64,000 nt of DNA from an uncultured Acidobacteriota bacterium. GTDB taxonomy: Bacteria > Acidobacteriota > UBA6911. Positions 38,557 to 62,951 of the stretch are shown here, in pieces; positions within the stretch are counted from its first letter, which is position 1; each line of letters begins with the position of its first letter. The DNA is taken from NCBI GenBank assembly GCA_963827655.1, contig CAWHCF010000049.1, positions 418,682-482,681 of the forward strand, given 5' to 3'. Under the pieces are notes generated by a model that saw only the letters and a program-made list of their open reading frames with translations, ran no database searches and was not told the DNA's origin. The position numbers and the translations under genes are program-made.

Positions 38557-38567
38557 TCAAGGGTAAG

Positions 38568-42884: not shown

Positions 42885-42911
42885 CCAAACCTGGATGAAG
42901 GGAGAATCATC

Positions 42912-45197
42912 ATGATCAGCGTCAGCGTCCGTAACGTCCTGAACCTGGTAGGGCAATCAGCCAGCATCCGACAGGTTGTGCGCCAACACAATTTGCCATT
43001 CCCCAGATGGTCGTACCCGCTCTCGTTGCGCAAGTTCGTTGGCGCGCTTCCGCCGGGCCGGATTCTGCGGAAAGTGATCCCGCTGGATTTATTGCAGCGC
43101 AAGTTTGACGAGTTTTTCAACAACCGGCCCAGGCCGCTGTTCAAATTCAAACTCCACGGCGATGAATGGGGGAAAGGCGAGTTCACCATTCTGTTTGACT
43201 ATCCGGTAGAGGGGTATAAGCCCTACCGCGATCCCACGCCTCTTGAGTCTCTATGGCTCGATGTGCAATGGCCCCTTCCCAATACCAGCTACCGCTTCAA
43301 TGATCTGAACACTGACCGGATCACCGCGAATGTCATTCCCGGGCAACCGGTGGGCATCGAGCTGCGGGTCTATTTCGAGACGGAGGGAGAGGAACTCAAA
43401 TTAGAACAATATCCCAACGTCGACTTCGACGGGCTCAATATCAAGCTGAAGGTGGAGTTTGGCGTTCACAACGGGGCCATAGACCTGTTCAGTTGGATGG
43501 AGGCGGTAGACGCGGCAACGGCAGCCGCAGTGGTCACGCCGGTCGGCAATAACCTTCTGCGTCTCAGCGTGAATTTCAGGGGGAAGATGTTTGAGGCCAC
43601 CGGCTATCCGCTGCCGTTGGTCAAGAACCTGCTCAGGGAGAAACTGAACAAGGAATTTATTCTCGCCGATGCGTCGGTGAACGTTGATGTGCTGCCTGAT
43701 GGCTGGGTCGCGCGTAAGATTGAGGGCACGGTAAATTCAAAAATATTTGAGGCGTTGACGAAAGAACCCGAACCCGGGGAACAAAGCGTCCGCGACTCTC
43801 TTAAGCAGAAAGTGACCACGTGGCTGGTGGGCGGCGCGTTCCATATCATTGGAGTCGCCAGTGATGGGCAGGCGCTGACGATTGATTACGTCTTGCCGTT
43901 AGGCCAGCTCGAACCTTTCCCCGAAAATCCGCAGCCGCCGCTTGATCCGGGACGACTTGCCAACATAGACCACATCGTGGTGCTGATGATGGAGAACCGT
44001 TCGTTCGACCACATGCTCGGTTACCTGAGCAAGCACGGCGGGCGAAACGACATCGATGGACTGCGTGGCGGCGAGAAGAATCCTTACAAGGGATTGGACT
44101 ACCTTTCTTCCCCGCTGCCTGGCACAGTGTTTCTGTACGGTCCCTGTCACGGACACGAGTGTGTCACAAATCAGGTGAATGGGGGCAAGATGGATGGCTT
44201 TGTGACGGATTTCGCTCCGCGCGCCGAAGAAAAAGGCATTAGTCCCGGCGAGGTGATGGGCTATTACAATGCCGCCCAGGTACCGGTCTACGATAGTTTG
44301 GCGCGTGAGTTCCTGATCTGCCAGCGCTGGTTCGCTGCGCATCCGGGGCCGACCTTCCCCAACCGTCATTACACCTTGACTGGCCGGCTCAATCGCGACT
44401 CGTATGGCCGCTGGGAATTCGACAATCCCCACGGCAGCGATTTCACGCCGGTCGCCGCCAAAAACATCTTTGACCACTTGACCGCTCAGGGCGTCTCCTG
44501 GCGCTTCTACGAGCACGGCGGCTACTGCTCCCTGCGCTTGTTCGAGCGGTACACCTTCGACACAGTGAATATCGTTGACGCTGGCATAGATGCTCAAAAC
44601 TTCGTCGCGAGCGCGCTGGCCGGAACGCTCCCATCGGTGACGTTTATTGACCCTGACTTCATTAACGTTCCAACCGGCAACGACGACCAGCCGCCAGCGG
44701 ACATTGCGCATGGACAGCGCCTGATCGGAAGAGTGGTGGACGCGCTGGTTAATAGCCCGCGCTGGAACAAGACGCTGCTGATAATTACTTATGATGAGCA
44801 CGGTGGCTTCTTCGATCACGTGCCGCCGCCGCAAGCGCCTGCCGTGTCGGGTATTGATCGTTACGGCACGCGGCTGCCCGCGTTCGTCATTTCCCCTTGG
44901 GTGGAACGCGGCAAGGCGACCGACGTTGTGTTCGATCACACCTCGATCCTCAAAACCATCATCCGCCGTTTCCTCAGCGTCCGCCCGCCCGATTTGGGCG
45001 AGCGCGTAGCCGCTGCCAATGATCTGTCAATGGTGTTGCGGCCAACTGCGCGCTCCGATAAGCCGCGCATCCCTGTGCCACCCGCGCCCCCGCCCAGCCC
45101 CGCCCTAGCCAGGCTCGCAGAAATGCCGACAGAAGGCGATAGGGATTTCAGGGCGCTGCTGCGCTCGGTGCGCTCCCGTTATCCCATTCGCAGATAG
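42912..45197 (+). CDS. Phosphoesterase / phospholipase C family protein with unrecognised N-terminal ~345 aa
   Basis: IDHIVVLMMENRSFDHMLG, PGPTFPNR, TYDEHGGFFDHVPPP, FDHTSI. Confidence 0.88.
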   Translation: MISVSVRNVLNLVGQSASIRQVVRQHNLPFPRWSYPLSLRKFVGALPPGRILRKVIPLDLLQRKFDEFFNNRPRPLFKFKLHGDEWGKGEFTILFDYPVEGYKPYRDPTPLESLWLDVQWPLPNTSYRFNDLNTDRITANVIPGQPVGIELRVYFETEGEELKLEQYPNVDFDGLNIKLKVEFGVHNGAIDLFSWMEAVDAATAAAVVTPVGNNLLRLSVNFRGKMFEATGYPLPLVKNLLREKLNKEFILADASVNVDVLPDGWVARKIEGTVNSKIFEALTKEPEPGEQSVRDSLKQKVTTWLVGGAFHIIGVASDGQALTIDYVLPLGQLEPFPENPQPPLDPGRLANIDHIVVLMMENRSFDHMLGYLSKHGGRNDIDGLRGGEKNPYKGLDYLSSPLPGTVFLYGPCHGHECVTNQVNGGKMDGFVTDFAPRAEEKGISPGEVMGYYNAAQVPVYDSLAREFLICQRWFAAHPGPTFPNRHYTLTGRLNRDSYGRWEFDNPHGSDFTPVAAKNIFDHLTAQGVSWRFYEHGGYCSLRLFERYTFDTVNIVDAGIDAQNFVASALAGTLPSVTFIDPDFINVPTGNDDQPPADIAHGQRLIGRVVDALVNSPRWNKTLLIITYDEHGGFFDHVPPPQAPAVSGIDRYGTRLPAFVISPWVERGKATDVVFDHTSILKTIIRRFLSVRPPDLGERVAAANDLSMVLRPTARSDKPRIPVPPAPPPSPALARLAEMPTEGDRDFRALLRSVRSRYPIRR

Positions 45198-45220
45198 ATC
45201 GGACGCGCGACGAACTCACG

Positions 45221-45348
45221 GCATAACATGGTCAGGGCGATCTCTCTGATGCGGCCAAACGCCTGGATGGGGCGGCGGGCAAGTTACGGGCAAAGTCGGC
45301 TAATCCGATATGGTAGAATCTGCCGGCAACTGATTGATTCTACAGTGT
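45221..45348 (+). pseudogene. 3' tip of a tyrosine integrase gene, arm repeats and extended -10-like motif
   Basis: HNMV../GDLSDAAKRLDGAAGK; GGGCAAGTTACGGGCAAAGTC; TGGTAGAAT; homologous to 58975-59103. Confidence 0.7.
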
Positions 45349-45518
45349 GCGCCTGTAGCTCAGTTGGATAGAGCAACGGTTTCCTAAACGGATCTCCTAA
45401 AATCCAAGCCCTTGGAAATCAAGTATTTTCAAGGGCTTAATTTTTTCTTGCTTTGGGTTTCGTTGGGTAAAATTGGGTATCTTTTGTTGCCCGCGGGCAA
45501 AGTCTGGGCAAAGTCAAA
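45349..45518 (+). repeat. att-like copy C: 5' half of tRNA-Arg(CCT) plus full arm sequence
   Basis: GCGCCTGTAGCTCAGTTGGATAGAGCAACGGTTTCCTAAAC then ~130 bp closely similar to copy B. Confidence 0.9.
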
Positions 45519-45769
45519 CGCCGATCAGCGACCGACACCTGATTCAAATTCTGGCGCCAGACGCGAGATTGAGTTAAGCCTCGAAGAGCCTTTAGGAAGG
45601 AACCACCTTTCCTCCTAAACAAGTTTGGCTTACGAGAGAAGATTCGATACCGGACAGCCGATGTCTGTTCTCTTCTCGGCATAAGTTCGGGTTTGCTTCG
45701 GTGGCGTTTTCTCAGGGGCAAATATGCTGAAGCATATTAGGTCATGTCGTCGGCAAGGCTGTGAGGCAC

Positions 45770-45920
45770 TCCTTTGGGAAAACCATCGCGGATCTTCCAC
45801 GACGTGTGCGCGTACTTGGCTGACGTCCAGCGCCGGATCCAACGCGAACGCACAATGGCGCCATGCCAGCAGCATCCAAGCCAGTACAAAGACCAGGCGC
45901 GACGATGTCTCGACCTCGTC
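45770..45920 (-). pseudogene. N-terminal fragment of a propeller-type two-component sensor
   Basis: LAWMLLAWRHCAFALDPALDVSQ/AHTSWKIRDGFPK. Confidence 0.55.
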
Positions 45921-46136
45921 CGAACGCTCTCTCCCTAGCGCGCACATCTTACCACGGGGCGCCTGCGTTCATCTTTCGGCCTAAACGTACGCTGGAGTGC
46001 TGGGCCAAGCTCATTCGTCCAGTGTCGCGGACGAAAACAGAGATGAGGTATTTGTCCCATCACCCTATTGAGGATGTTGACCGACGTAGAGCCCAGGAGT
46101 AACCTCCCGTTTAGCCCGTGGCACCGAGGTTGACTT

Positions 46137-46907
46137 ATGTGCCGAGTTCCCGCATTCGCGTTCCTCCTCCTTCTTTCGTGCACGTCTGTTCTTCGCGCCC
46201 AATCCACAAATGCCTCGCTCACGGGTTGCATAACTGATCCCGCGAAAGCCCTGATTGTTGATGCCAAAGTCGCCGCTACCAGCATCGATACAAATGTCCG
46301 TTACAAAACCACGACCAGCGTCACAGGCGAATACCACCTGGCGAACCTCCCCCCAAGCCTCTATCGAATCGAAATCGAAAAATCCGGCTTCAAAAAGTTA
46401 ATCAAGCCGGATGTGATCCTTCACGTTCAGGATGCGCTCGAAATCGACTTCGAGATGACGCTCGGTCCAGTGTCCGAAACCATCATGGTGGAAGCGGGCG
46501 CGCCGCTGGTGAATACGGAGTCGGGGACGGTCAGCACGGTGATCGACCGCACCTTCATCGAGAATCTTCCTCTCAATGGCCGGAGTTTCCAGACGGTGAT
46601 CACGCTCACGCCGGGTGTGGTCGTGATCGCCAAAAGGTTCGACGACCAGGGACAATTCAGCGTGAATGGACAACGCGCGGATGCGAACTACTTCACCGTA
46701 GATGGGGTCAGCGCCAATTTCGGCGTAACCGGATTACTTCAATTGGTGCAGACCGCTGGCGGAGCGCTGCCCGCCCTCAGCGCTTCGGGCGGGACAAACA
46801 GCCTGGTGTCGGCGGATGCCATGCAGGAGTGGGACTACGGCGAATCCGAAGGGACGAACTGCACAACCAGCTTTGAGGGTTGCCAGAAGACGGGAAACAC
46901 TCGGTAA
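46137..46907 (+). pseudogene. Truncated TonB-dependent receptor (N-terminal quarter)
   Basis: ASLTGCITDP, LPLNGRSFQ, GQFSVNGQR, SLVSADAMQE then unrelated sequence. Confidence 0.8.
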
Positions 46908-46982
46908 GCTCGTTGGGCCGTGTGCAACACACAGTTCAACGAACAACTTGATCCGCCGCTACCGAAATATGAAGGAAGGAGC

Positions 46983-47918
46983 ATGATGAAAACGATCGGC
47001 TATGACAAACCACTTTACGTTCTGCCCTTCGACCATCGAGGCTCATTCGAGACCAAGATGTTCGGCTGGCATGGAGATTTGACCGCCACACAAACAGCCG
47101 AAATCGCCGCCGCCAAGGAGGTGATCTATGACGGCTTCAAGGCTGCGGTCGAAGCCGGTGTACCCAAGGAGAAGGCCGGCATCCTGGTGGACGAGCAATT
47201 CGGCGCCGGCATCCTTCGCGATGCGGCGGCACAGGGGTACGCGATTGCATGCCCGGCCGAGAAGAGCGGGCAGGAAGAGTTCGACTTCGATTACGGCGAG
47301 GACTTCGCCAACCATATCGAGGCCTTCCATCCGACCTTCTGCAAGGTGCTGGTGCGTTATAACCCCGATGGTGATGCAGTCATGAACCGGAGGCAGGCGG
47401 CACGCCTAAAACGATTGTCTGATTACCTGCACAGCAAGGGACAGAGCCGATTCATGTTCGAACTGCTGGTGCCGGCAGAAAAGTCACAGCTCGAACTGGT
47501 CAAGGGAGAGAAGAAGGCGTACGACCTGGAGCTTCGCCCCAAGTTGATGGTGCAGGCGATGCTGCAGCTTCAGGACGCGGGCGTCGAGCCGGATGTTTGG
47601 AAGATCGAAGGACTAGATCGCCGCCAGGAATGCGAGAAGATCGTGGCTGCCGCGCACCGCGCAGGTCGTGACCAGGTAGGCTGCATTGTTCTAGGCCGCG
47701 GTGAAGATGAAGAGAAGGTGCGCGAATGGCTGACGACGGCAGCCGGAGTTTCGGGGTTCATTGGTTTCGCCGTGGGCCGGACGGACTTCTGGCAACCACT
47801 TGTCGACTTTAGGGCGAAGAAGATCACACGCGAAGCCGCGGTCGCCGAGATTGCCGGCCGCTATCGGAAGTTTGTGGACGTTTTTGAGAACGCTCGCGTC
47901 GGGATCAGCGCTGCGTGA
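46983..47918 (+). CDS. DUF2090 / IolC-associated aldolase-like protein
   Basis: LPFDHRGSF, GILVDEQFG, KVLVRYNP, PDVWKIEG, GFAVGRT. Confidence 0.85.
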   Translation: MMKTIGYDKPLYVLPFDHRGSFETKMFGWHGDLTATQTAEIAAAKEVIYDGFKAAVEAGVPKEKAGILVDEQFGAGILRDAAAQGYAIACPAEKSGQEEFDFDYGEDFANHIEAFHPTFCKVLVRYNPDGDAVMNRRQAARLKRLSDYLHSKGQSRFMFELLVPAEKSQLELVKGEKKAYDLELRPKLMVQAMLQLQDAGVEPDVWKIEGLDRRQECEKIVAAAHRAGRDQVGCIVLGRGEDEEKVREWLTTAAGVSGFIGFAVGRTDFWQPLVDFRAKKITREAAVAEIAGRYRKFVDVFENARVGISAA

Positions 47919-47985
47919 CGCGATCACTTGCGGCGCGCACTAACGCTTAGAAAATGGACAACGATTGTTTCAACAAGGAGGGCTT

Positions 47986-49010
47986 ATGCAACTTGGAATG
48001 ATAGGGCTTGGCAGGATGGGCGCCAACATGGTGCGGCGCTTGATCAAGAATGGTCACACTTGCGTGGTGTTTGATCGGTCGCCGGAAACCGTGAGCAAGC
48101 TTGTACAAGAGAAGGCGGCGGGAGCCGCCTCACTCGCGGACCTGGTAAAGAGGCTCGAGAAGCCGCGGGTGGTCTGGCTGATGGTTCCCGCGGCAGTCGT
48201 GGACGAGACCATTAATGATCTTCTGCCGCTGCTCGATGCAGGGGACATTCTGATTGACGGCGGGAATTCTTACTACGTAGACGACATCCGACGCGCAAAG
48301 GAACTGGCGCCGAAACATATCCATTACGTTGACGTTGGCACGAGCGGTGGCGTGTGGGGACTGGAGCGAGGCTACTGCATGATGATTGGCGGCGAGACGG
48401 ATATGGTTAAACATCTCGATCCGATCTTCGCGACGCTGGCGCCGGGCGCAGGTGACATCCCGCGCACGCCGGGACGCGAAAAGACTGAGGGGACTGCCGA
48501 TCAGGGCTACCTGCACTGCGGTCCGAGCGGGGCCGGCCATTTTGTGAAGATGGTGCATAACGGAATCGAGTACGGAATTATGGCTGCATACGCCGAAGGG
48601 TTGGGCGTGCTGCGCTCCGCCAATGTCGGCAAGCAGAAGCATGGAATTGACGCCGAGACGACGCCACTTGCGCGATCCCGAGCATTATCGGTACGACCTC
48701 AATCTATCTGACATCGCCGAGGTATGGCGGCGTGGCAGCGTGATCGCATCGTGGTTGCTGGATCTCACTGCGACAGCTCTGCATGAAGATCCGACTCTTT
48801 CGAATTTCGCGGGCCGTGTGTCCGACTCCGGCGAGGGCCGCTGGACGATTAAGGCCGCGATTGATGAGGCGGTGCCGGTCCCGGTTCTAACTTCGGCTTT
48901 ATTCGAGCGATTCGAGTCTCGAGGCGAAGCGGGCTTTGTGGACAAACTGCTTGTCCGCCATGCGCTATCAATTCGGTGGACACCTGGAGAAGGCAGCCGA
49001 AAAGTCATAG
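47986..49010 (+). CDS. gnd: 6-phosphogluconate dehydrogenase, short decarboxylating type (frameshifts near 48670 and 48950)
   Basis: [44 protein letters not shown]. Confidence 0.9.
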
Positions 49011-49027
49011 GCCGCAAGGAGGTACGC

Positions 49028-50433
49028 ATGAGGAATCTACCATCGGACGCGCTGGTCTTCTTCGGCGCGACAGGCGATCTGGCCTACAAGAAGATTTTCC
49101 CAGCGCTGCAAGGCATGGTGAAGCGTGGGCATCTGAATGTGCCAGTGATCGGCGTGGCCAAATCCGGCTGGAATCTGGAACAGTTCCGAGCGCGGGCGCA
49201 GGACAGCCTTGAAAAACACGGCGGGGTCGATCCTGCTGCTTTCGAAAAATTGTGCGGTTTACTGCGCTACGTGGATGGTGATTACCAGGACCGGGCGACT
49301 TTCGAGGCGCTCCGAAAAGAACTGGACGGGGCCGAGCGGCCGGCACACTATCTGGCGATCCCGCCGCTTCTATTCGGAGCGGTCGTGGAACAGCTGGCGA
49401 AATCGGGCTGCACCAAAGGAGCCCGTGTCATCGTCGAAAAACCCTTCGGACATGATCTTGAATCCGCACGGGAACTGAACCAGATTCTGCTTGGCGCCTT
49501 CGCACGAAGCAAATATCTTTCGCATCGACCACTATCTAGGGAAGCGGCCGGTGAACAATCTGCTGGTGTTTCGCTTCGCGAATACATTTGTCGAGTCGTT
49601 CTGGAACCGCAATTACATCGAGAGCGTGCAGATCACGATGGCCGAGGATTTCGGCGTCCAGGGCCGGGGAGCTTTCTACGATAAGACCGGCGCCATGCGC
49701 GACGTGATTCAGAATCATCTGTTTCAGGTTCTCTCGAGTCTGGCGATGGAGCCGCCAGCCAGAATCGACAGCGAAGCCATCCGCGACGAAAAGGTTAAGG
49801 TGCTGAAAGCGATTCCGCCTATAGCGGAGAAAGACCTGGTCCGCGGTCAATTCCGCGGCTACCGCAACGAGAATGGCGTGGCGAAGGACTCGCAGGTGGA
49901 AACCTTTGCCGCGTTGAAGCTCGAGATCAATTCCTGGCGCTGGCAAGGGGTCCCTTTCTACATTCGGGCCGGGAAATGCCTGCCGGTAACCTGCACTGAA
50001 ATTGTCGGCCAGTTTCGCAAGCCTCCATCACTGGTCCCTGCCGAGGTCCTGAAGGAGAACCACCTGCGGCTCCGCCTCAATCCCGACGTGACGATCGCTA
50101 TGGGAATGATGGTGATGACTCCGGGCGAGGAGGTGCACGGCCAGCCAGTGGAAATGCTGGCGAGCCGTTCGCCGCGCGCCGGCGACATGGACGCTTACGA
50201 ACGGGTTCTGGGAGCCGCGATGGAAGGGGACGCCACTACTGTTTGCCCGGGAGGATTACGTCGAAGAGGCGTGGCGCGTTGTTGATCCGGTGCTGAAAAC
50301 GGGGACACCGGTCTACGAATACGAAACGAATACGTGGGGGCCGAGCGAGGTGGGGCGAGTGACTCCGGCGGGAGGCTGGAGCAATCCGACAACCGGCGGA
50401 GAAACGGTTGCTGTCGCCGGCCATGCCGCGTGA
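49028..50433 (+). CDS. zwf: Glucose-6-phosphate dehydrogenase (frameshifts near 49495 and 50240)
   Basis: [37 protein letters not shown]. Confidence 0.9.
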
Positions 50434-50466
50434 GAAGTAGTTGTATCAGTCAGGGTTGGAGAAATT

Positions 50467-51180
50467 GTGATGAGAGTTGAAGTATTTGCCGATGCCGGCT
50501 CGGTTGCTCGAGAGGCTGCCGCCATTGTGGCTGCTGAGGCCAGAGCGGCGATCGCTGCGCGTGGCGGCTTCGTCATCGCCGTGAGCGGCGGACGCACGCC
50601 ATGGCTTATGCTTCGTGCTCTAGCAAGTGAAGACCTCCCTTGGGACGCTGTGCATGTCGTGCAGGTTGATGAGCGAGTCGCGCCCGCCGGGGATCCTGAT
50701 AGAAACCTGACACACTTGCGTGAAAGCCTGCTGGGACACGCTTCGTTGCGACCTGAGCAGATTCACGCCATGCCGGTGGAAGCGCCCGACCTGGACGAAG
50801 CAGCCGCCCAATACGCAGTGGCTCTCCAGCAGATCGCGGGTTCACCACCTGTGCTGGATCTCGTTCACCTGGGCCTCGGACCTGACGGGCATACTGCTTC
50901 CCTGGTACCCGGAGATCCGGTCTTGCACGTCGATGAGGCGGACGTCGCACTCACGGCGGTTTATCAGGGAAGACGCCGGATGACGTTGACCTATCCGATT
51001 CTCAATCGGTCCCGCCGTGTACTGTGGCTCGTAACCGGTCATGACAAAGCTGAAATGTTCGGGCGCCTCTACGCCGGAGATACTTCGATTCCGGCCGGAC
51101 GGGTTTGCCGCGACCGTGCCTTGATACTCGCGGATCGCGCAGCGGCGGGCCGAGAGTACAGCGTTCAAACAAAGGAGTGA
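50467..51180 (+). CDS. pgl: 6-phosphogluconolactonase
   Basis: SGGRTP, DER, LGLGPDGHTASL, RMTLT. Confidence 0.92.
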   Translation: MMRVEVFADAGSVAREAAAIVAAEARAAIAARGGFVIAVSGGRTPWLMLRALASEDLPWDAVHVVQVDERVAPAGDPDRNLTHLRESLLGHASLRPEQIHAMPVEAPDLDEAAAQYAVALQQIAGSPPVLDLVHLGLGPDGHTASLVPGDPVLHVDEADVALTAVYQGRRRMTLTYPILNRSRRVLWLVTGHDKAEMFGRLYAGDTSIPAGRVCRDRALILADRAAAGREYSVQTKE

Positions 51181-51295
51181 ATGTGCGAGGCCGAGTTCAG
51201 TCAGGCCGAACGCCACCTGCGCCGCCTGGGCAAAGTCGCTTCACTGGAGAAGCAAGTCACTAGCAACAGTACCAGAGTATAACGAGGAAATAACC

Positions 51296-53378
51296 ATGAG
51301 CGCCGCGCAAGTCATTGACGCTTTGGCCGAAACGAAACTTGATCAACTTTGCATCAACACCATTCGCACGCTTTCGATCGATGCCGTGCAGCAGGCCAAA
51401 TCCGGACATCCCGGCACGCCGATGGCGCTGGCGCCGTTGGTCTACACGATCTGGAATCGGGTTCTGCGCTTCGATCCTCAAGAATCCGATCTGGCCCAAT
51501 CGGGATCGCTTTGTCCTGTCGAACGGCCATGCTTCGATGTTGCTCTGGTCGGCGCTTCATCTCAGCGGCACGCGGGCCGTCAACGCCGATTATGAAAGGC
51601 TTGGTGCAGCCCTCGGTGACGCTCGACGACATCCGGCGGTTCCGCCAGCTCGACAGTAAGGCGCCCGGTCACCCTGAGTACCATTGGGTGTCGGGCGTTG
51701 AGACGACGACGGGTCCCCTGGGGCAGGGCGTCGCCACGAGCGTCGGCATGGCCATCGCCGAGAAGTGGCTCACCAGCCGCTTCAACCGACCCGGCTTCGA
51801 GATCTTCGACTACAACATCTATGCCGTTTGCGGAGATGGCTGTTAATGGAGGGCGTTGCGTCTGAAGCGGCATCGCTGGCTGGTCATCTTGGGCTCGACA
51901 ATCTATGCTGGGTCTACGACAACAACCACATCACGATCGAGGGGAACACGCGTCTGGCGTTCACTGAGGATGTCGTGGCTCGCTTCCTGGCCTATGGTTG
52001 GAACGTCCTGCGGATCGGCGACGCGAACGATCGTGAGCGCATCGCGCAGGCGCTGGACATCTTCCGAAAGACGAAGGGGCGCCCACGTTCATCATTCTGG
52101 ACAGCCACATCGGGTACGGTTCGCCGCACAAGCAGGACACCGCAGCAGCTCATGGCGAGCCGCTCGGCGACGATGAGGTCCGGCTCACGAAACGCAGCTA
52201 CGAGTGGCCTGAGGATGAAAAATTTCTTGTTCCGGATGGAGTGTACGAGCACTTCGCGGCCGGCGTTGGCGCACGCGGCGCGAATTTGCGGCGTGAATGG
52301 ACGGGGCTGTTCGAAGCCTATAGAGCCAAGCACCCCGAACTGGCAAACGAGATCGAACTGATGGAGCGGCGGGAGCTCCCGATCGAGTGGGATCGCAACT
52401 TGCCTGTTTTTCCGCCCGATGCAAAGGGAATCGCTGGGCGGGACGCGTCGGGAAAGGCATTGAACGTGCTCGCACAAAATATCCCGTGGTTCCTCGGCGG
52501 CTCTGCGGATCTCGGGCCATCGAACAAGACCACCCTGAAGTTCGCCGGCGCGGGAGATTTCCAGGCTGAGAGCCCCAGCGGGAAGAACCTGCATTTCGGT
52601 ATTCGCGAGCACGCGATGGCCGCGATTGTGAACGGCCTCTCGTTGTCCAAACTCCGGGCTTTCGGCGCAAGCTTCTTCATCTTCAGCGACTACGCGCGCC
52701 CTGCGATTCGGCTCGCGGCGCTGATGGAGCTGCCCGCTATTTTCGTCTTTACGCACGACGCTATGGGCGACGGAGAAGACGGTCCCACTCACCAACCGGT
52801 CGAGCACCTTGCTTCGATGCGCGCGATACCCGGGCTGATCACATTGCGGCCCGGCGACGCCAACGAGGTAGTCGAGGCTTACCGCTACGTCATGCAATTA
52901 CGCCATCAGCCCGCGGCGTTGGCATTGTCGCGCCAACCGCTGCCGACGCTGGATCGCGGCAAATACGCGCCGGCGTCAGGGGTCGCGCACGGCGCCTATG
53001 TGCTCGCCGACGCTCCCGGCGGAGACCCCGAAGTGATCTCATCGCCTCGGGCAGCGAAGTCATCCTGGCGGTCGAGGCCCACGATAAGCTGCTCGCCGAA
53101 GGCATCCGTTCGCGGGTAGTGTCTATGCCTCCTGGGAGATTTTCGATCACCAGACCGAGGAGTACCGGGACAGCGTGCTGCCACCGAACGTAAAGGCGCG
53201 CGTCGCCGTGGAGCAGGCCTCCACTTTGGGATGGGAGCGATACGTTGGCCCCTCTGGTCACGTCATCGGCATGAAGACGTTCGGGGCTTCGGCGCCGCTC
53301 AAGGAATTGCAGCGGAAGTTCGGGTTCGAACCGGACCAGGTGGTTGCGGCCGCAAAGAAGCAATTGGACAGGAAATGA
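51296..53378 (+). CDS. tkt: Transketolase (multiple frameshifts)
   Basis: [56 protein letters not shown] spread over several frames. Confidence 0.9.
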
Positions 53379-53397
53379 GTCGCCTAAGGATCGTACT

Positions 53398-53662
53398 ATG
53401 GCTGACGCAATTGCCGTCCTGAACGCTGGCTCATCCAGCATTGACTTCTCCCTCTTCGTCAGGCGCGGCGGTGAGCTGGAGCTCGAACTCGAACTGCGCG
53501 GCCAGGTCGAAGGGATCTACACCATGCCTCACTTCATCGCGAAAAGGCGTGGCGGGCCGACGGCGGCGGAAAAGTCCTGGGCCGAGGGCACGAAGCTCGG
53601 CCATGATTGCGCGCTCGATCACCTGGTCGCGTTTCTGCGCTCCGAGCTCGCGGATGACCGTC
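53398..53662 (+). pseudogene. ackA: Acetate kinase N-terminal fragment
   Basis: MADAIAVLNAGSSSIDFSLF; ends before the GHRVVHGG motif. Confidence 0.75.
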
Positions 53663-53797
53663 TATACAAGCGCCAGCTGCTGAACGCGCTTCGGATCGTG
53701 GTGCTTTGTAGCCAGTTCCGGGAAGTTCTCAAGTGATCGAACCATCGCCGAGTACGCGGCCGACATCTGGAACGTGAAGCAGTGACCGGTGGAGTGA
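53663..53797 (+). pseudogene. glgP: Two fused fragments of glycogen phosphorylase
   Basis: [14 protein letters not shown] then [19 protein letters not shown]. Confidence 0.8.
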
Positions 53798-53831
53798 AGT
53801 CGCCGGCAAAATTATCGAAGGGGAACGACCC

Positions 53832-55514
53832 ATGCCAATTTCTCCACTTGCAGGCAAGCCTGCCGACCCATCGTTGCTGATCAACGTGCCCCGGCTGGTA
53901 ACCGCGTATTACACGAGGCAACCGGATCCAGCAGTACCCGCACAACGCGTCGTGTTTGGAACTTCCGGGCACCGCGGCTCCGCGCTCGATAATGCGTTCA
54001 ATGAGGCGCATATCCTCGCAATCACGCAGGCGATTTGCCTCTATCGCAAACAGCAGGGCATCGACGGACCTCTCTACATCGGCGCCGATACGCACGCGCT
54101 TTCGGAGCCCGCTTTTGCCAGCGCTTTGGAGGTGCTGGTAGCGAATGGCGTCGACGTGATGGTCGATGCCGACAATGGCTACACTCCTACCCCGGTAATC
54201 TCGCACGCGATTCTCACCTACAATCGCGGACGGAAGCGCGGGCTCGCGGACGGCATCGTCATTACACCATCGCATAATCCGCCACGATTCGGCGGCTTCA
54301 AATACGATCCGCCCACCGGTGGACCCGCAGACACCCACGTCACCGAATGGATAGAACGACAGGCGAACGCCTTGATTGCCGACGGCCTGCGCGGGGTGGC
54401 GAGAGTACCGTTTGAACGTGCTCGGAGCGCTTCCACCGTACACCCCCATCAGTACCTCGATTCCTATGTGCGCGATCTTCCTTCGGTGATCGATCTTCAG
54501 GCAATCCGCGAGAGCAAGGTTCGCATCGGTGTGGATCCGTTGGGCGGCGCCAGCGTGGCTTACTGGGATGCCATTGGCGACCGCTACGGACTCAATCTGG
54601 AGGTCGTGAACCACGTCATCGATCCTACCTTCCGCTTCATGACGGTCGATTGGGACGGCCAAATCCGGATGGACCCTTCGTCGGTGTATGCGATGGCAAG
54701 CCTGGTCGGACTCAAGGAGCGATTCGACGTAGCCTTTGCCAGCGACACCGATGCCGATCGGCACGGAGTTGTAAGCCGCAGCCATGGGCTCTTAGATCCG
54801 AACCGCTATCTCTCAGTTGCTATCTCATACGTGTTCGCCAACCGCCCGCAATGGTCGCATGCGGTCGCCGTTGGCAAGACCGTCGTCAGCAGCAGCATGA
54901 TCGATCGCGTGGTGAAAAGGCTAGGCCGACGGCTGGTTGAAGTTCCGGTAGGTTTCAAGTGGTTCGTGGGAGGACTCATCGACGGCTCACTCGGATTCTG
55001 CGGCGAGGAAAGCTCGGGCGCAACATTCTTGCGTCGTGATGGCACGGTCTGGACGACGGATAAAGATGGGCTTGTCCCGAACTTGTTAGCAGCCGAGATC
55101 ACCGCGCGGACAGGCAAAGACCCGGGCGAGCACTATCAAGAACTGACAGCCGAGTTCGGCACCCCATACTACACACGCATCGATGCCCCAGCGACGCCGG
55201 AACAGAAAGCGAGACTGCAAAAATTGTCGCCCGAGGTGGTTGTAACTGCGAAACTCGCTGGCGAGCCGATCACAACCAAACTGACTGCGGCCCCGGGTGA
55301 CGAGGCACCGATCGGCGGCCTCAAGGTAGTGACTGCCAACGGCTGGTTCGCCGCCCGACCCTCCGGCACCGAGGATATCTACAAGATCTATGCGGAGAGT
55401 TTTAAGGATCAAGGCCACCTGGACGCGATCGTGAGCGAAGCCCATGAGATCGTGAACGATGCACTAAATTCCTTTGATTCAGTTCACCAGCAGCGGGAGG
55501 GCGCTCCGAAATGA
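53832..55514 (+). CDS. pgm: Phosphoglucomutase (alpha-D-glucose-phosphate-specific)
   Basis: [35 protein letters not shown]. Confidence 0.95.
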
Positions 55515-55527
55515 CGGAGGCCGCGTC

Positions 55528-56199
55528 ATGACCCCGAGCCCAATTGTTTTTCTAGTTGACGTCGACAACACGCTACTCGACAACGACCGGGTCCAGAATG
55601 ACCTCAAGCGTCACCTTGAACGTGAGTTCGGGGCGCCCTGCCGCGACCGGTATTGGGCGATTCTCGAACAGCTCTTCACTGATCTGGGCTACCGCGATTA
55701 TCTCGGCGCCCTTCAACTCTATCGGGTCGAACACCCGCAAGATATTCACCTGCTGTCGATGTCGTCATTCCTGTTGGACTACCCGTTCGCCAATCGTCTC
55801 TATCCCGGATCGCTCGACGTGCTTGAGCGGTTCCGCTCCTGGGGACAAACGGTAATCCTCTCGGACGGCGATGTGGTTTTTCAACCACGCAAGATCGAAC
55901 GCTCGGGCATCTTCGAAGCTGTCGAAGGCAACGTCCTCATCTACATTCACAAAGAAGAGGCGCTGGATGACGTCAAGCGGCGTTACCCGGCTCAGCACTA
56001 TGTTCTCGTGGACGACAAGCTGCGCGTCTTGACCGCAGTTAAGAAGGCCTGGAGGTCGCGCGTGACCACGGTCTTTCCCCGGCAAGGTCAATATGCCCAT
56101 GACCGAAACATCATTGCCCAATCCCCGCCCGCGGACCTAACGGTAGAGCGCATCGGCGACCTGCTTGACTATGAACTGTCCGCCTTGCTCGCGGGTTAA
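55528..56199 (+). CDS. HAD-family hydrolase
   Basis: DVDNTL, LSDGD, VDDK. Confidence 0.85.
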   Translation: MTPSPIVFLVDVDNTLLDNDRVQNDLKRHLEREFGAPCRDRYWAILEQLFTDLGYRDYLGALQLYRVEHPQDIHLLSMSSFLLDYPFANRLYPGSLDVLERFRSWGQTVILSDGDVVFQPRKIERSGIFEAVEGNVLIYIHKEEALDDVKRRYPAQHYVLVDDKLRVLTAVKKAWRSRVTTVFPRQGQYAHDRNIIAQSPPADLTVERIGDLLDYELSALLAG

Positions 56200-56231
56200 C
56201 GGTCGGTTCATCTTTCTCAGGAGGTGACAAG

Positions 56232-56380
56232 ATGATGCATCAAACTGAGTGGGCCGTGATTCTGGCGGGTGGAGACGGAACCAGACTAAACCCACCCTTG
56301 TGGCCTGAGCGATTGGCCGTGATCAAGGTCGATAGGTAAGGCATTTTGGCGATTCATTGACTTGGGTTGGGGCGCAACCT
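56232..56380 (+). pseudogene. Internally deleted sugar-phosphate nucleotidyltransferase remnant
   Basis: RBS then MMHQTEWAVILAGGDGTRL, followed closely by PERLAVIKVD. Confidence 0.6.
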
Positions 56381-56473
56381 TGACTTGCGACGACATGGTG
56401 GTCCATCTTGATGCTCTTTGGCTATCGCTTCTTCGGGTTACGAATGCTGTCTACTCATTGCGCCTAAGCGCCG

Positions 56474-57265
56474 TCAGATATCATTCCTTCTCATGACGAT
56501 GATCGTCTCATCATCCAGACGCTCTCCGTCTCCGCGAAAGGCCCGGAGTGCTGACGCGAGTTGAGTGCCGAGTGCTTCGGCGGAGCTGGAGTCAAGCGCG
56601 CGCGCCATATTCATCAGGCCGTCCCGACCGAGTTCATTTCCAGCTGGACTGGTGGCTTCGGAGACGCCGTCGCTGTATAGCACCATCAGGTCGCCTGATT
56701 GCGGTTTGACGATTAACCGGTCGTAGGTGACGTCGGGGAGCAGGCCAAGCGGCAGACCCGCCGGTCGCCCTCGCTCGCTCGCGCGTTGCGTTTCAAGCCA
56801 GCTCCACTCGTCGCGCGAGGCACGATACCAAAGAGGAGGAGGGTGCCCCGCGTTCGTCATTACCACCAGACCCCGACGGCCGTGCCACCCAAGTGCCACC
56901 ATCGTGGCGTAGTGCCCGTCGCCAAGTCCTTCTCGAACCGCCTGATTGAGATCCCGCATCAGTGCGATCTGTTCCAGGTCGCGAAGGTACCGCTGCATGA
57001 GGTTTCGGAGCTTCTCGCCGAACACCGCCACTGCCTGTCCGTGGCCGCTCACATCCGCAAGCGCGATCCGCGAAACGATGCAACTCGGACACACGGACAC
57101 GTAGTGGACATCGCCGCCAGTGTGAGTTGGCCCCACCGGCACCGAATGCACCCATGCAGTTAAACCTGGCAGTTCGACCAGACTCGCGGCACGCTCGCTA
57201 CCGGCCCATGTTTCTGCACACGCAAGGTGCCGCGGCATCGACTGGATCGGATTTTCACTGTTCAC
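56474..57265 (-). CDS. PP2C/SpoIIE-family phosphatase
   Basis: GGDVH, ADVSGHG, NAGHPPP, YSDGVSE, DDET. Confidence 0.9.
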   Translation of the reverse strand: MNSENPIQSMPRHLACAETWAGSERAASLVELPGLTAWVHSVPVGPTHTGGDVHYVSVCPSCIVSRIALADVSGHGQAVAVFGEKLRNLMQRYLRDLEQIALMRDLNQAVREGLGDGHYATMVALGWHGRRGLVVMTNAGHPPPLWYRASRDEWSWLETQRASERGRPAGLPLGLLPDVTYDRLIVKPQSGDLMVLYSDGVSEATSPAGNELGRDGLMNMARALDSSSAEALGTQLASALRAFRGDGERLDDETIIVMRRNDI

Positions 57266-57306
57266 GGCAAGCCCCGTTAACGTTCATCGCTCTTCTTTCT
57301 CAGTAC

Positions 57307-57765
57307 CTGTTCCTGGCGAATTCTGAATTCGGCGTCATTCCGTTCACGCGTCCAGGACGAATTGTCCCAATCCTTCGACTTTCCGATTTTCAAACGCGGC
57401 ACCCAAATTGAAACCGGACTATTCAAAGGTGAACGGGCGAGTCTGACGCGCTGAGCCATTGCTCAGCCCTATTCGCTTGCCCGGAATGCGTTCGATGACC
57501 GTTATCGTAATGTTGGAAATCAAGTAGCTTCGTCTCCAGATCTGTCGTGGTCCAGAATAGAATTCGGTCGAGGTGTTCGCGCCGAACCGTACCGATAAGG
57601 CGTTCTACGAACGGATGCGAGAGCGGCAGGTAAGGGACAGTCTTGATTTCCGTCATCTCGAGTACTCGAAGATTGGCTTGCCATTGGTGGAACCGAAACA
57701 GCGGATTATGATCCGAGCTGAGGTATTTTAGCAGACTTTGCCCGCAAATCGTTCGATTGAACATC
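57307..57765 (-). mobile_element. 3' remnant of an integrase-core (rve) transposase element
   Basis: YLSSDHNPLF, PLSHPFVERLIGTVRREHLD, YDNGHRTH. Confidence 0.75.
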
Positions 57766-57789
57766 CGGCGGTGTCGTCAAGCCGCTTAT

Positions 57790-58770
57790 CTCGAAAATCG
57801 AGGATTGCTAAACAGCGTGCGGCTCCAGCGTAACTTTATGTACCAACTTCTCGAGACGCTTTACCAAGTAACGAGCCAGACGATCCCTTTGGAGGTGGTC
57901 AAAAAAGTTCTCTCCCAGTTCCTGGTAGACTGCGCGATGTTTTAGGAGGCGGTAGACTACGATCAGGATCGTATGTCCCACAGCCATAATGGCTCGTTTC
58001 CGTCCGCGCCTAGCCGCCAAACGGTGGTATTGGGCTTTCAAATAGGTGCCCTTCGTTCGGTTGCCAGCCCAGGCTGCTTCGCATAAGCTGCGGCGCAGCC
58101 AACGACTCCCCTTGCGGGTTCTGACGGACCGGCGTTTGCCTGCGCTCTCGTTTTGTCCCGGGCACATTCGGGCCCACGAGGCCAAGTTCCTGGCGGTGGG
58201 GAACTGACTCATGTCGGGACCTAGTTCCGCGATCAGGTTTTCCGCGGCTCGTCGGTCAATCCCAGGAATCGTACAAGCGTACAGACTCCTGAAGCGGAGC
58301 CATACGCCTTTCAATCTCTGCGGAGACTCGGGCGATGGTTTGGTCCAGATACTGCACTGTGGTTCATCAACTCGCCCAGCAAGAAACGGTGGTGATCCGT
58401 TAAGCGACCCTCCAGAGACTTTCTCAATTGGTTCGTCTTGCTCTTCAGGCGGCCTCGGGCCATGTCGGCCAGCACCACCACATCTTGTTGACCGGCAATC
58501 AAAGCCTGCAAGATGGCCACGCCGGATCGCCCCAATACGTTACTGGCTACCGAACCTAGCTTGATATTGGCGTCCTCCAGTACCTTCTGAACGCGATTGG
58601 CTACCGTCGCTCGCTGTTGGCTCAATTTGCTCCGGTGGCGCGTCAGGTCTCGCAGTTCTCGGACTGGACGAGGGGGGTACAAAGCTGCCGCGCAACAACC
58701 CATGTTGGAGCAGTTGCGCGATCCATTCGCAGTTGTCTGACGTCAACCATTTCTTTTTCCCGTAGTGACT
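57790..58770 (-). mobile_element. Degraded IS110-family transposase
   Basis: WIAQLLQHGLLRGSFVP, ELRDLTR, IPGI..RAAENLIAELG, CPGQNESAGK; frameshifts, N-terminus missing. Confidence 0.85.
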
Positions 58771-58974
58771 CACCGAAAAATCTAACTATCCGGAAGTTGT
58801 TGCTTCATAACTCTTAAAGAGAAAGCCGGAAAGAGAGAATCAGTATCATCTGGTTTCTTGTTTTTGGCGTTTGGTTGTTACCTTTTGCGCAACCAAATTC
58901 CGATGCTCGCCGGACCCAACGAGATCATCTTGTCTCGTTTCTTCGCCAGGCAGCTGGCCTTTCGTTCGAGCTCG

Positions 58975-59103
58975 GCCATAACATCGTCAGCGAGGGCGAT
59001 CTCTTCGATGCCGCCAAGCGCCTGGATGCGGCGGCGGGCAAAGTCAGCCATTTTCAGCGCGCCGATATGTTAAATCTGCCGGCAACTGATTGATTCTACT
59101 AGT
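58975..59103 (+). pseudogene. 3' tip of a tyrosine integrase gene plus extended -10-like motif
   Basis: HNIVSEGDLFDAAKRLDAAAGKV; TGTTAAAT; TCTGCCGGCAACTGATTGATTCTAC shared with 45319-45343. Confidence 0.72.
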
Positions 59104-59145
59104 GCGCCTGTAGCTCAGTTGGATAGAGCAACGGTTTCCTAAACC
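59104..59145 (+). repeat. att-like copy D: 5' half of tRNA-Arg(CCT), followed by a different arm type
   Basis: GCGCCTGTAGCTCAGTTGGATAGAGCAACGGTTTCCTAAACC; downstream ATGCACAATTT x2 near 59252-59274. Confidence 0.88.
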
Positions 59146-59379
59146 AGAATCTGCAGCATCGTAAATCCTGTAACCACATTACTTGTCAAACACTTGCCAA
59201 ATTGCAAAAGTTTGGTGGAGTAGGTTAGAATGGGGTGATTTTGGTTCTAGTATGCACAATTTCATGCACAATTTTGAGGGGGTAAAGTGACCGTGCTCGG
59301 CTCGGATCTGGCTAGGAGTTGCTGACCTTCGTCGCTGAAATCCGACCCGGGAGCGGCTGATAGCTTCAAATTGGAAATA

Positions 59380-60881: not shown

Positions 60882-62951
60882 TCATTCCTCATCTGATGAG
60901 TGAAGTCCGTGAGGTACACGACGACGATCCTCTTTGGCGGGGTGAGCACATGGTAATGGGCCCGTCGGCGGTTGGAACAGCAGATCCTTGCCATTAGCAC
61001 GAACGGCACGCAGAATCCCTTCTTTTGCGTAGATCCTGGCGGTGTGGGGATGCACTCCGATCTTGCGTGCAATCTCAGGCAAGGTGAGCCAACCACTACG
61101 CTGTAGGTGCTGGCAATAGCTCTCAATGCCATAAGCAAAACGGATATACCTCACCCTGGATGCCGTAAAACTTTTTCCTGTCCCTGAGCGATAACGGCGA
61201 GAGTTGAGAGTGCATGCAATCTGATCATCGGCCTGTCCTGTCGCCAGGACGCGGATCTCTTCTATGACTGCAGCAGGAGTGCGGACAAGTTCGAAGCAGG
61301 TGTGGGGCCGTGGTACATCGAGCGAGGTGGTTGCCCCACCTTTCCAACGAATGTGTACACGGATCAGTTCTCCGTCCCGTGCCAGTGTCACGTCGTCGAT
61401 CAGGAGCCTCAACATGCGCTTGCGATCACGCGCTGACGTCCTCGGATCTTTCCACACTCGAGGAAAGTCTGATGCCAAAGCTCCAATACGTTCCTTGACC
61501 TCAGTGCTCAGCTCCAGGGTGCCGTCCGCCTTCGTGGCACGTGAGTATTCCGCCTCCGCCTGAGCAAGTCTCGCCATGCTTTCATTCCATTGTCGCTCGA
61601 GAGTGTCCACAACAAGTCGGTTCTCCGGCCGTGCCAGCATATACTGACGTTGGGCCAGTTCCGCCTCCTCTCTCGCCCGTTCGACCTGAGCACGCCGGAG
61701 GCGGTCCACCTCAGCTTTGCGCGCGCGTAGTTCTTCGAAAACCTGCAATGCCACATCCAGTGTCGCGGGCGTCACGGCCTCAACCGTAGCCTGCCCGACC
61801 GCTCCATCAACCGCGAGGCCAACAATGCACTGGCACATAGGCCCCGCCGACTCAATGCCCCGCCGGGCGCAGACATAGTTCGATATCTGATGGCCCTTGC
61901 GGACACTGTATCGCACCGTCATGCGCAAACCGCAACGACCACACAGTACCAACCCCTGCAGCAGGGCATTGCCTTCGCGGGCGGGTCCCTTGTGACGGTC
62001 CCTACCGTCGCTGTGCCCATTCTCGCGCAACTTGGCCTGATTGGTTTCGTACTCCTGCCAGGAGATGTAACCAGGGTGGGCGTCGGGCAGAAAAACCTTC
62101 CAGTCCTGATGTGCCAGTAAACAGATGTGCATCCTACCATCCGGCCCCTTCCTTGTCCGTGTGCGCCCGTAAACGAACGCTCCAGCGTAGCGAGGGTTAT
62201 GCAAGATATTCAGAACCATGCCGCGCTGCAGTTTCCCGAAGACCACCTTGCCGGCTCTTTTGCCTTCAAAAAGTCGGCTGGGCCAAAGGATCGAATGCTT
62301 TGAGAAGTACTTCACGACTTGCCCGGCTGATCCGGTCCGACGGAAAGTTTCAAAGAGAAGCCGTACCGCACTGTGGATTTGCTCGTCCGGGTCGAACACG
62401 AGTCTTTGGCTCTCGTCGTAGACGTAGCCAGTGAGCGGACGTACCCACAGCTCTCCGCGTCGAGCTTTGTTGAGCAGACCGCCTATGAGTCGGGCCCGCA
62501 GCATGTACAGCTCCGCTTCGCTCATCGTACCCTTCAGCCCGAGGAGCAGACGATCGTTGAAATGGTTTGGGTCGTAGACTCCATCTTCGTCTACGATGAG
62601 CGTCCCTGTCAGCGCACAGATCTCCAATAACCGATGCCAGTCCGCGTTGTTCCGGGCGAGACGGGATGCGTTTAATCCCATCACGAGTCCCACCCGTCCC
62701 AAAGTGACCTCCGCTACCAGGCGCTGGAACCCGCTCCTGTCGGTAGCGGTGGCAGCAGATTCTTCGAGATCCTCGTCGATCACAACAGTCTGTTCGACAC
62801 TCCAGCCGAGCTCCTGTGCGTGGCGCTTGAGGTCGTACTGCAGTGCGGTGCTCTCACGATTCTCCTTCACTTGATGCAACGTAGATTGCCGGACATAGAG
62901 GATCGCCTGCTTTCGTAGGTGGTCGGCGGTGACCTTTGTCTGCGCGTTCAT
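60882..62951 (-). CDS. Large serine recombinase
   Basis: YVRQST, SRLARN, GLKGTMSEAE, LHNPRYAG, LLQGLVLCGRCG zinc ribbon, coiled coil, C-terminal HTH. Confidence 0.92.
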   Translation of the reverse strand: MNAQTKVTADHLRKQAILYVRQSTLHQVKENRESTALQYDLKRHAQELGWSVEQTVVIDEDLEESAATATDRSGFQRLVAEVTLGRVGLVMGLNASRLARNNADWHRLLEICALTGTLIVDEDGVYDPNHFNDRLLLGLKGTMSEAELYMLRARLIGGLLNKARRGELWVRPLTGYVYDESQRLVFDPDEQIHSAVRLLFETFRRTGSAGQVVKYFSKHSILWPSRLFEGKRAGKVVFGKLQRGMVLNILHNPRYAGAFVYGRTRTRKGPDGRMHICLLAHQDWKVFLPDAHPGYISWQEYETNQAKLRENGHSDGRDRHKGPAREGNALLQGLVLCGRCGLRMTVRYSVRKGHQISNYVCARRGIESAGPMCQCIVGLAVDGAVGQATVEAVTPATLDVALQVFEELRARKAEVDRLRRAQVERAREEAELAQRQYMLARPENRLVVDTLERQWNESMARLAQAEAEYSRATKADGTLELSTEVKERIGALASDFPRVWKDPRTSARDRKRMLRLLIDDVTLARDGELIRVHIRWKGGATTSLDVPRPHTCFELVRTPAAVIEEIRVLATGQADDQIACTLNSRRYRSGTGKSFTASRVRYIRFAYGIESYCQHLQRSGWLTLPEIARKIGVHPHTARIYAKEGILRAVRANGKDLLFQPPTGPLPCAHPAKEDRRRVPHGLHSSDEE

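Follow-up and report, generated by a model that had tools for sequence, protein, structure and literature searches.

Integrase-gene tails as probable attachment arms of integrase-less islands in a tandem array at tRNA-Arg(CCT) of an uncultured acidobacterium

Results

Two homologous segments that begin at the same codon

We analysed a 64,000-nt stretch of DNA from an uncultured Acidobacteriota bacterium of the GTDB lineage UBA6911 (assembly GCA_963827655.1, contig CAWHCF010000049.1, positions 418,682 to 482,681 of the forward strand); this whole stretch is called the window, and positions are counted from its first letter. The analysis concerns two short segments, A and B, that resemble the end of a tyrosine-integrase gene (int) and that are each followed by half of a tRNA gene. 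Pairwise alignment and blastn agree that 45222–45348 (A) and 58977–59103 (B) are homologous and that both open with CATAAC. The blastn match fell into two blocks, one of 49 nt (45234–45282 with 58993–59041, 89.8% identity, E 7e-11) and one of 73 nt (45317–45389 with 59073–59144, 95.9% identity, E 1e-27); the ~30 nt between them, where A carries an 11-nt duplication of a repeat, remained unaligned. The match runs past 45348 and 59103 for 41 further identical nucleotides, 45349–45389 being the same as 59104–59144. Upstream of the common start the two sequences are unrelated. When the 30, 60, 120 or 300 nt located 5′ of A and B were compared, the local-alignment score was reached by 261, 323, 308 and 78 of 500 shuffles respectively, and the upstream pieces were not repeated in the window or in the 33 related loci described below.

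An earlier note on this DNA, made from the letters without database searches, had reported two homologous segments with a common start at CATAAC and unrelated DNA upstream. All of this is borne out by the alignments, with the start displaced by 1–2 nt from the coordinates it gave. The ends that it placed at 45348 and 59103 are too short, as the 41 identical nucleotides beyond them belong to a tRNA half. The context of the segments was overlooked: a tRNA 5′ half follows each of them, the half is present in a four-copy array, and the islands between the copies have matching left ends.

Integrase remnants and the family to which they belong

With 66 full-length integrases as tblastn queries, the integrase was found in the window as remnants only, namely three tails and one inverted N-terminal piece.

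45222 to 45348, + strand: remnant A, a frameshifted piece of a tyrosine-integrase gene, its last ~38 codons, and a spacer; candidate right (P) arm of an island, S2
58977 to 59103, + strand: remnant B, an in-frame integrase tail, HNIVSEGDLFDAAKRLDAAAGKVSHFQRADMLNLPATD*, and a spacer; candidate right (P) arm of an island, S3
13441 to 13545, + strand: third integrase-tail remnant (SEGDLFDPAKCLDAAAREIS...), with no tRNA half after it; 49 nt past a 240-nt miniature inverted-repeat transposable element (MITE) and coaX
40840 to 41370, − strand: integrase N-terminal remnant, residues ~8–116 of ~377, within S2; split by a MITE-like insert (~41102–41313) and a frameshift

The tblastn E-values of the integrase family were 1.6e-14 for B, for which 29 of 32 residues matched protein P0001, 7e-8 for A and 3e-4 for the remnant at 13441. 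A DNA profile built from the last 510 nt of the family gave nhmmer E-values of 1.7e-12, 4.6e-5 and 2.4e-4 in the same order. In this profile the alignment of B starts at position 449, that of A at 450 and that of the 13441 remnant at 460, which therefore begins 12 nt deeper into int than A and B; none of the three has a match further upstream. Neither tblastn nor nhmmer revealed a longer C-terminal remnant in the window. The N-terminal remnant was matched by 59 of the 66 full-length queries. It may represent the front part of the gene to which remnant A belonged, turned round by an inversion that was followed by a deletion. A stretch at 5367–5454 (+) weakly resembles the central part of the integrase family (nhmmer E 0.048, tblastn E 0.35) and may be another scrap or chance. 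A candidate fourth tail remnant at 57700–57830 (−) was rejected, as the significant part of it is a 20-nt arm-like match: 57728–57747 (−) agrees at 18 of 20 positions with the repeat region of remnant A, a score reached by 0 of 1000 shuffles.

The intact family is large. Used as a query for longer proteins, P0002 found 6512 at E ≤ 1e-5, typically of 360–400 aa; P0002 and the full-length matches carry Pfam PF00589, and P0001 and P0002 both read ...TGHKTRSVFERYNIVSEGDL... at their ends. RYNIVS.GDL is present in all 16 full-length sequences read, and the ending ...GHKTRSVFERYNIVSEGDL... in the same 16 and in 30 of 33 genomic loci, the exceptions being L006, L023 and L028. These loci were obtained by scanning genome contigs with the degenerate pattern NIVSEGDLxxAAxxLD, and come mostly from metagenome-assembled genomes (MAGs) of Acidobacteriota and Binatia; a previous peptide-pattern search of genome contigs had given 39 matches, 0 of them confirmed.

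Their C-terminal match places A and B among the tyrosine recombinases/phage integrases (PF00589). Neither is a working gene of that kind: CAT stands for the Tyr codon, no catalytic domain lies upstream, and A passes out of frame after HNMV through a 4-nt deletion. Judged by sequence, A and B are C-terminal remnants of integrase genes and not genes. The earlier note had recognized the peptide as an integrase C-terminus, in agreement with tblastn, PF00589 and the DNA profile, and the motif that it gave for the end of the family recurs in the 16 full-length sequences and the 30 loci. It had further supposed that His replaces the catalytic Tyr. CAT is indeed found at the Tyr codon in both remnants, but a Y-to-H substitution is unsupported: homology to the family starts at that very codon, so that CAT is indistinguishable from junction sequence. 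To reach CAT from TAC requires two changes, and from TAT one. Junction sequence is the better reading of CAT, in preference to a Tyr-to-His change in a working enzyme.

In the related loci, the position of the tRNA was scored relative to the Asn codon that follows the Tyr codon. A same-strand tRNA lies 138–300 nt past it at five of the 33 (L001, L011, L018, L021 and L026), and an opposite-strand tRNA 104–161 nt past it at nine, with a further one at 418 nt (L015). At the remaining 18, ARAGORN found no tRNA downstream of the Asn codon; one of these, L031, has a tRNA-His ~400 nt upstream. The integrase family uses both polarities, with the gene end always beside the site.

Four 5′ halves of tRNA-Arg(CCT)

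The 41-nt tract that follows A and B is the 5′ half of tRNA-Arg(CCT), comprising the acceptor strand, the D arm, and the anticodon stem and loop (UUCCUAA); beyond the loop, A and B are identical for two bases of the 3′ strand of the stem and no further. The window contains four same-strand copies of this half, against 0.00 expected by chance.

28137 to 28177, + strand: J1, tRNA-Arg(CCT) 5′ half with 2 mismatches; a HigB/HigA pair before it, no integrase tail
34433 to 34467, + strand: J2, tRNA-Arg(CCT) 5′ half without its first ~7 nt, 35/35 identical to J4; directly against the stop codon of a gene for an outer-membrane protein, no integrase tail
45349 to 45389, + strand: J3, complete tRNA-Arg(CCT) 5′ half, anticodon at 45383–45385
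59104 to 59144, + strand: J4, complete tRNA-Arg(CCT) 5′ half, 41/41 identical to 45349–45389

An island array is recognized by same-orientation fragments of one tRNA gene that bound islands, and the four halves on the + strand have this arrangement. The Rfam tRNA model fits the 5′ part only, scoring 16.8 and 19.1 bits where the gathering score is 29. ARAGORN found no intact tRNA in the 64-kb window, no Rfam family reached its gathering score there, and the Rfam tRNA model gave only sub-threshold partial fits when a decayed tRNA 3′ half was sought after 59144 or 45389.

The tRNA half is also met at the end of integrase reading frames. Translated, 45349–45387 reads APVAQLDRATVS*. Proteins P0011, P0012 and P0018 end in ...APVAQ(L/V)DRATVS and P0001 in ...SAPVAQ, which match the translated tRNA half; these open reading frames (ORFs) therefore read through the half and stop at the TAA in the anticodon loop. 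In P0011, P0012 and P0018, gene callers have fused the 5′ half of tRNA-Arg(CCT) to the integrase ORF.

Arms, repeats and hairpins on either side of the tRNA halves

The sequences to the right of the halves, which we designate left (P′) arms of the islands that they open, are as follows.

45390 to 45518, + strand: S3 left (P′) arm; terminator-like hairpin at 45406–45438 and then a T run; GGGCAAAGTC at 45495–45504 and 45506–45515
34468 to 34595, + strand: S2 left (P′) arm, 93% identical to 45390–45518; terminator-like hairpin at 34483–34517; GGGCAAAGTC at 34572–34581 and 34583–34592
28178 to 28207, + strand: shortened left arm after J1, the first ~30 nt of a P′ arm, 98% identical to J2
59145 to 59274, + strand: left end of an island, S4, with no resemblance to the other P′ arms; ATGCACAATTT at 59252–59262 and 59264–59274

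After the tRNA half, the left arms at J2 and J3 are alike for 128 nt (93%), and the likeness ends right behind the second GGGCAAAGTC. Each contains a hairpin, of 15 and 14 pairs respectively, with a T run, and a pair of GGGCAAAGTC copies 11 nt apart. The hairpins presumably stop the transcripts of the displaced tRNA half. The same 10-mer is found in the right arms: remnant A has a variant, GGGCAAGTTA, at 45277–45286 and GGGCAAAGTC at 45288–45297, and remnant B has GGGCAAAGTC at 59036–59045. Overall the window contains eight exact copies of GGGCAAAGTC where 0.22 would be expected, and six of the eight lie in the junctions, ~111–122 nt from the anticodon on the left arms and ~96–107 nt from it on the right arms. 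The two others are in S3, within 57728–57747 (−) and at 51228–51237 (+), and may be debris of older arms. In S4, which has an unrelated left end, the spacing between the anticodon loop and the ATGCACAATTT pair equals that seen for the GGGCAAAGTC pair of J3.

Similar repeats are concentrated in the integrase tails of the relatives. In the 33 loci, GGGCA[AC]A[AG] has 29 matches within the 212 nt that follow the conserved tail motif, 4.19/kb compared with 0.149/kb elsewhere (~28-fold), and 11 of the 33 have at least two tandem copies in the integrase tail, mostly 12 nt apart; variant repeats, uncounted, were seen by eye in other loci. Translation turns them into repeated short peptides such as GKVTGKI, GTISGTI and GKDTGKD. 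A second motif, TAAGTnnTTGA-like, occurs at +112 to +143 in 7 of the 33 loci and at +102/+103 in A and B. A repeat is thus found on both arms and keeps its place among relatives. These comparisons (8 copies against 0.22, and repeats in 11 of 33 tails) back the proposal of the earlier note that arm sites lie within the gene end. We take the GGGCAAAGTC repeats to be putative arm-type sites for integrase binding that are embedded in the coding sequence of the int tail. Together with the tRNA half they would make up a lambda-like attachment site, with crossover in the anticodon loop and with arms formed by the int tail on one side and by the hairpin and repeats on the other.

Two probable integrase-less islands

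The arms and tRNA halves delimit two consecutive islands.

34468 to 45348, + strand: island S2, 10.9 kb, from P′ arm to remnant A; sigma factors, two Ser/Thr kinases, a crystallin-domain protein, a phosphoesterase and the inverted integrase N-terminal remnant
45390 to 59103, + strand: island S3, 13.7 kb, from P′ arm to remnant B; frameshift-split pentose-phosphate genes, phosphoglucomutase, a SpoIIE phosphatase and insertion-sequence (IS) debris (IS110, rve_3)

Apart from the arms and tRNA halves, S2 and S3 have no sequence in common. Each is flanked as if by attL and attR, with an arm and a tRNA half on either side and the same 10-mer on both. Pfam searches of 42 chosen larger ORFs at 25.7–64 kb detected no intact recombinase in S2 or S3 and IS debris only. 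Neither island has an integrase gene of its own, and Pfam on the 42 ORFs, together with tblastn, found none of their own genes for integration or transfer. We read S2 and S3 as probable decayed elements of the cis-mobilizable kind, which a related integrase could perhaps still recombine.

A different explanation for gene ends that stand alone is the SSV-type arrangement, in which the site lies inside int and integration splits the gene. Some ORFs of the family do cross the tRNA half and end in the anticodon loop, so that gene and site overlap. That overlap, however, leaves int whole, with its tail and the tRNA half still joined, and the predicted crossover is at the anticodon stem and not at the Tyr codon. 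An SSV-type split would leave an N-terminal part of int at the opposite end of the island, on the same strand. There is no such part at the left end of S2 or S3, and the sole N-terminal piece is internal and on the opposite strand. We regard an SSV-type split as hardly credible here.

Proposed origin of the array

We propose that A and B are the right attachment arms of two consecutive integrase-less islands in a tandem array at tRNA-Arg(CCT), and put the probability of this at roughly 80%. In this large family of tyrosine integrases, int would end ~25–60 nt from the attachment site, which in the present subfamily would extend from the first base of the tRNA to the anticodon loop, directly downstream of int. 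An incoming circle would recombine in the anticodon loop, such that the int tail, spacer and tRNA 5′ half that it brings become the new working front of the tRNA, while the resident 5′ half and everything upstream are pushed to the left. Repeated integrations would account for the four displaced 5′ halves in the window, and the live tRNA would be expected to the right of 64000. S2 and S3 would each have lost the integrase and kept both arms, the right one comprising the final ~128 nt of int.

Several observations weigh against this proposal. Neither the live tRNA nor a full-length integrase is within the window, and the polarity of the array is therefore one that we infer. Binding of the repeats by an integrase is putative. 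G+C content is 0.54–0.65 throughout, with no clear island signature, and much of the cargo resembles ordinary acidobacterial chromosomal genes. Integrase tails are missing from J1 and J2, and the tRNA half of J2 has also lost its first 7 nt; these defects imply that the array is partly rearranged. The inverted N-terminal piece in S2 is not foreseen by a simple history of accretion. Finally, the idea that the right arm might supply the tRNA promoter draws on one element, the extended −10-like sequence TGGTAGAAT in remnant A (45311–45319), and a promoter scan found no sigma-70-type pair of hexamers in either right arm.

The common edge at the Tyr codon

The edge shared by A and B at the Tyr codon is real, and represents either one inherited deletion of int or the outer limit of what must stay. 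Two random cuts in a gene of ~1.1 kb rarely coincide, and both remnants have CAT, so that the agreement needs a cause. The remnant at 13441, which starts 12 nt further in, suggests that the position is special, being either a hotspot or the functional limit of the arm, which would lie ~150–162 nt from the anticodon loop.

The earlier note had proposed that both segments come from one non-autonomous ancestor. In its fuller form, this ancestor already had int deleted up to the Tyr codon, borrowed an integrase and swapped its cargo. A and B do have the same start nucleotide and the same CAT before the Asn codon, whereas by chance two cuts in ~1.1 kb would coincide about once in 1000 cases, and the CAT match would be a further 1 in 64. 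Such an ancestor would also agree with S2 and S3 both having cognate left and right arms that bear the same 10-mer, and with A, B and the 13441 remnant being nearest to one another: they agree among themselves at 79–88% over 48 nt, and with the 33 loci at a median of 58% and at best 81%. The pattern of divergence does not fit. Over EGDLFDAAKRLDAAAGKV (EGDL...GKV), B equals the Tyr-bearing P0001 and P0002 at 18 of 18 positions, whereas A has indels and departs from them at 4 of the 18; B matching Tyr-bearing genes where A drifts is the wrong pattern for a split that followed truncation. Descent from one ancestor would still call for a second break at that place, because the DNA upstream is unrelated up to the junction.

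If one truncated ancestor had spread, its left boundary would be expected in other copies, as the earlier note itself had suggested checking. No further copy with this edge was found: int is cut at the Tyr codon at 0 of the 33 loci, and none of the four close protein hits (two longer, two near) begins there, all of them having RY. L006 and L023 were considered as truncations at this codon and rejected, the first having a 1-nt insertion and the second a stop codon; in both, and in L028, which has a Cys codon, homology goes on upstream. With B nearer to the Tyr-bearing genes, no locus cut at this point and the 13441 edge 12 nt off, descent from a single non-autonomous ancestor was not established, and we consider it possible though doubtful.

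Alternatively, int may have eroded separately in each island until erosion was halted at the outer edge of the right arm, ~150–162 nt from the anticodon loop. We propose that the stretch retained was needed for recombination, or for expression of the tRNA while the junction fronted a live gene. Consistent with such a limit, the three remnants start within 12 nt of one another (profile positions 449, 450 and 460), no longer C-terminal remnants are present, and the left arms of S2 and S3 likewise cease to be similar at one point, after the second repeat. The limits of lambda attP, −152 to +82, are similar in size to this arm limit. Independent erosion, however, leaves the exact agreement of A and B and their common CAT unaccounted for, and 55 nt without a demonstrated site separate the edge from the first repeat. 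Moreover, the S3 pseudogenes are frameshifted rather than eroded, which argues for little erosion overall, and no tRNA half follows the 13441 copy. We think this explanation somewhat unlikely.

A site-specific event at the Tyr codon, followed by deletion of the DNA upstream, could also yield a fixed edge; it might have involved an IS110-type element, a group II intron or a secondary site of the integrase. Targeted hits on this integrase family do occur, as a group II intron (Rfam RF02003, 69.3 bits) is found in int at the same place in L006, L017 and L022 of one MAG. Its position is given as ~280 nt and elsewhere as 410–530 nt upstream of the Asn codon, and L029, from another MAG, has the same int tail and is free of the intron. 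Remains of an IS110-family element occur 270 nt before the start of B, the 13441 remnant is preceded at 49 nt by a MITE, and another MITE interrupts the N-terminal remnant. Closer inspection of the DNA next to the edge does not favour such an event. A search for RNA families upstream of B at E ≤ 10 gave only two chance-level rows, and a group II intron or other Rfam family there was rejected. The IS110-family transposase (57423–58703, −) is frameshifted and lies beside an rve_3 fragment; it lacks its ~110 N-terminal residues, so that 58976 is not a natural end of the element, and that candidate was rejected as well. No common end sequence precedes A, B and the 13441 remnant. Decayed tRNA halves there, such as a deletion between a core site and a pseudo-site in int would leave, were likewise rejected, since 17%, 66% and 89% of background segments reached the scores of the three. 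Among the 33 loci, none has an insertion at the Tyr codon. A site-specific event with subsequent deletion seems to us improbable.

The edge may also have a more general meaning. The int tail of this family would be dual-coded, specifying both the end of the protein and the arm sites of its own attachment site, and an integrase-less lineage would keep exactly that stretch, with the edge set at the Tyr codon by the need for mobility with a borrowed integrase or by site-specific clipping. We offer this as a tentative suggestion, itself rather unlikely as matters stand.

Other features of the islands and the window

The cargo of S3 includes a second sugar-phosphate set at 46137–53119 (6-phosphogluconate dehydrogenase, glucose-6-phosphate dehydrogenase, 6-phosphogluconolactonase and transketolase). 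Both dehydrogenases are in two ORFs each and transketolase is in three; since long ORFs elsewhere in the window are intact, the splits look like real decay and not sequencing error. S4, which begins at 59145, contains a large serine recombinase of 689 aa (60882–62951, −) with helix-turn-helix (HTH)-domain neighbours. To the left of the islands, a HigB-like toxin and an HTH antitoxin are encoded at 27484–28087, directly before J1, and an outer-membrane beta-barrel gene at 30707–34433 is split (852 + 399 aa), its stop codon overlapping the start of J2.

A MITE-like repeat of ~240 nt with terminal inverted repeats is present at 13152–13391 and 16984–17223 (97% identical), and a third set of such ends at ~41102–41313 lies inside the inverted integrase N-terminal remnant. 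Rfam detected no RNA families around 13300–13900. At 3090–4070 (−) there is a protein with a colicin-D-like C-terminal domain; the next ORF, of 191 aa and with no Pfam match, could be its immunity gene.

Discussion

In a soil group that has received little study, the array offers a view of how islands stack up and decay at a single tRNA gene, and does so in the rarer polarity, in which the front half of the tRNA is replaced. Island finders that require an integrase for each island would miss arrays of this kind. The repeats in the int tail predict the sequence of the arm sites for thousands of uncharacterised integrases, which could aid both the use of these enzymes and the mapping of their islands. 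A further regularity is the repeated trimming of int at the Tyr codon.

In lambda-type attP sites, short repeats occur on both arms ~100–120 nt from the core, and int lies beside the site. The arrangement proposed here differs in that the right-arm repeats lie within the coding sequence of the int tail, where they appear as repeated peptides; binding to them is putative. In archaeal integrases of the SSV1 type the ORF overlaps a tRNA-derived site. Unlike those, integration here does not split the gene, and no N-terminal part is found at the far end of either island. The integrase itself belongs to an uncharacterised soil group (Acidobacteriota/Binatia).

Decayed elements that keep their att sites are known as cis-mobilizable elements (CIMEs), and their accretion is documented in the part of the literature represented by PMC5704250. 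As described in that part, the known cases of CIMEs and of integrative and conjugative or integrative and mobilizable elements are mostly from Firmicutes and at the 3′ ends of genes (PMC5704250), whereas here it is the 5′ half of a tRNA gene that is replaced. Conjugation genes or a helper element are not visible in the present window. Accretion linked to a tRNA gene is a known route for collecting foreign DNA, and it is the orientation that is unusual here.

The closest comparison is with the tandem arrays of the Islander survey. As in the arrays set out in the portion of that survey on which we draw, elements with a tyrosine integrase split the tRNA gene at its anticodon region and make it whole again with a copy of their own, the end of the island is marked by the fragment that is displaced, and arrays result when the site is used repeatedly (PMC4383910). 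According to the same portion, 5′ fragments were found in 159 of 3919 islands, and there were 125 arrays of at least two members and 4 of at least three (PMC4383910). The present window, in contrast, has at least four fragments in 31 kb, where only those 4 arrays had at least three members, and its islands, having no integrase, would fail the Islander filters as given there (PMC4383910). The array is of a known kind, to which it adds a family-level detail, the repeats in the integrase tail, and one regularity, the edge at the Tyr codon.

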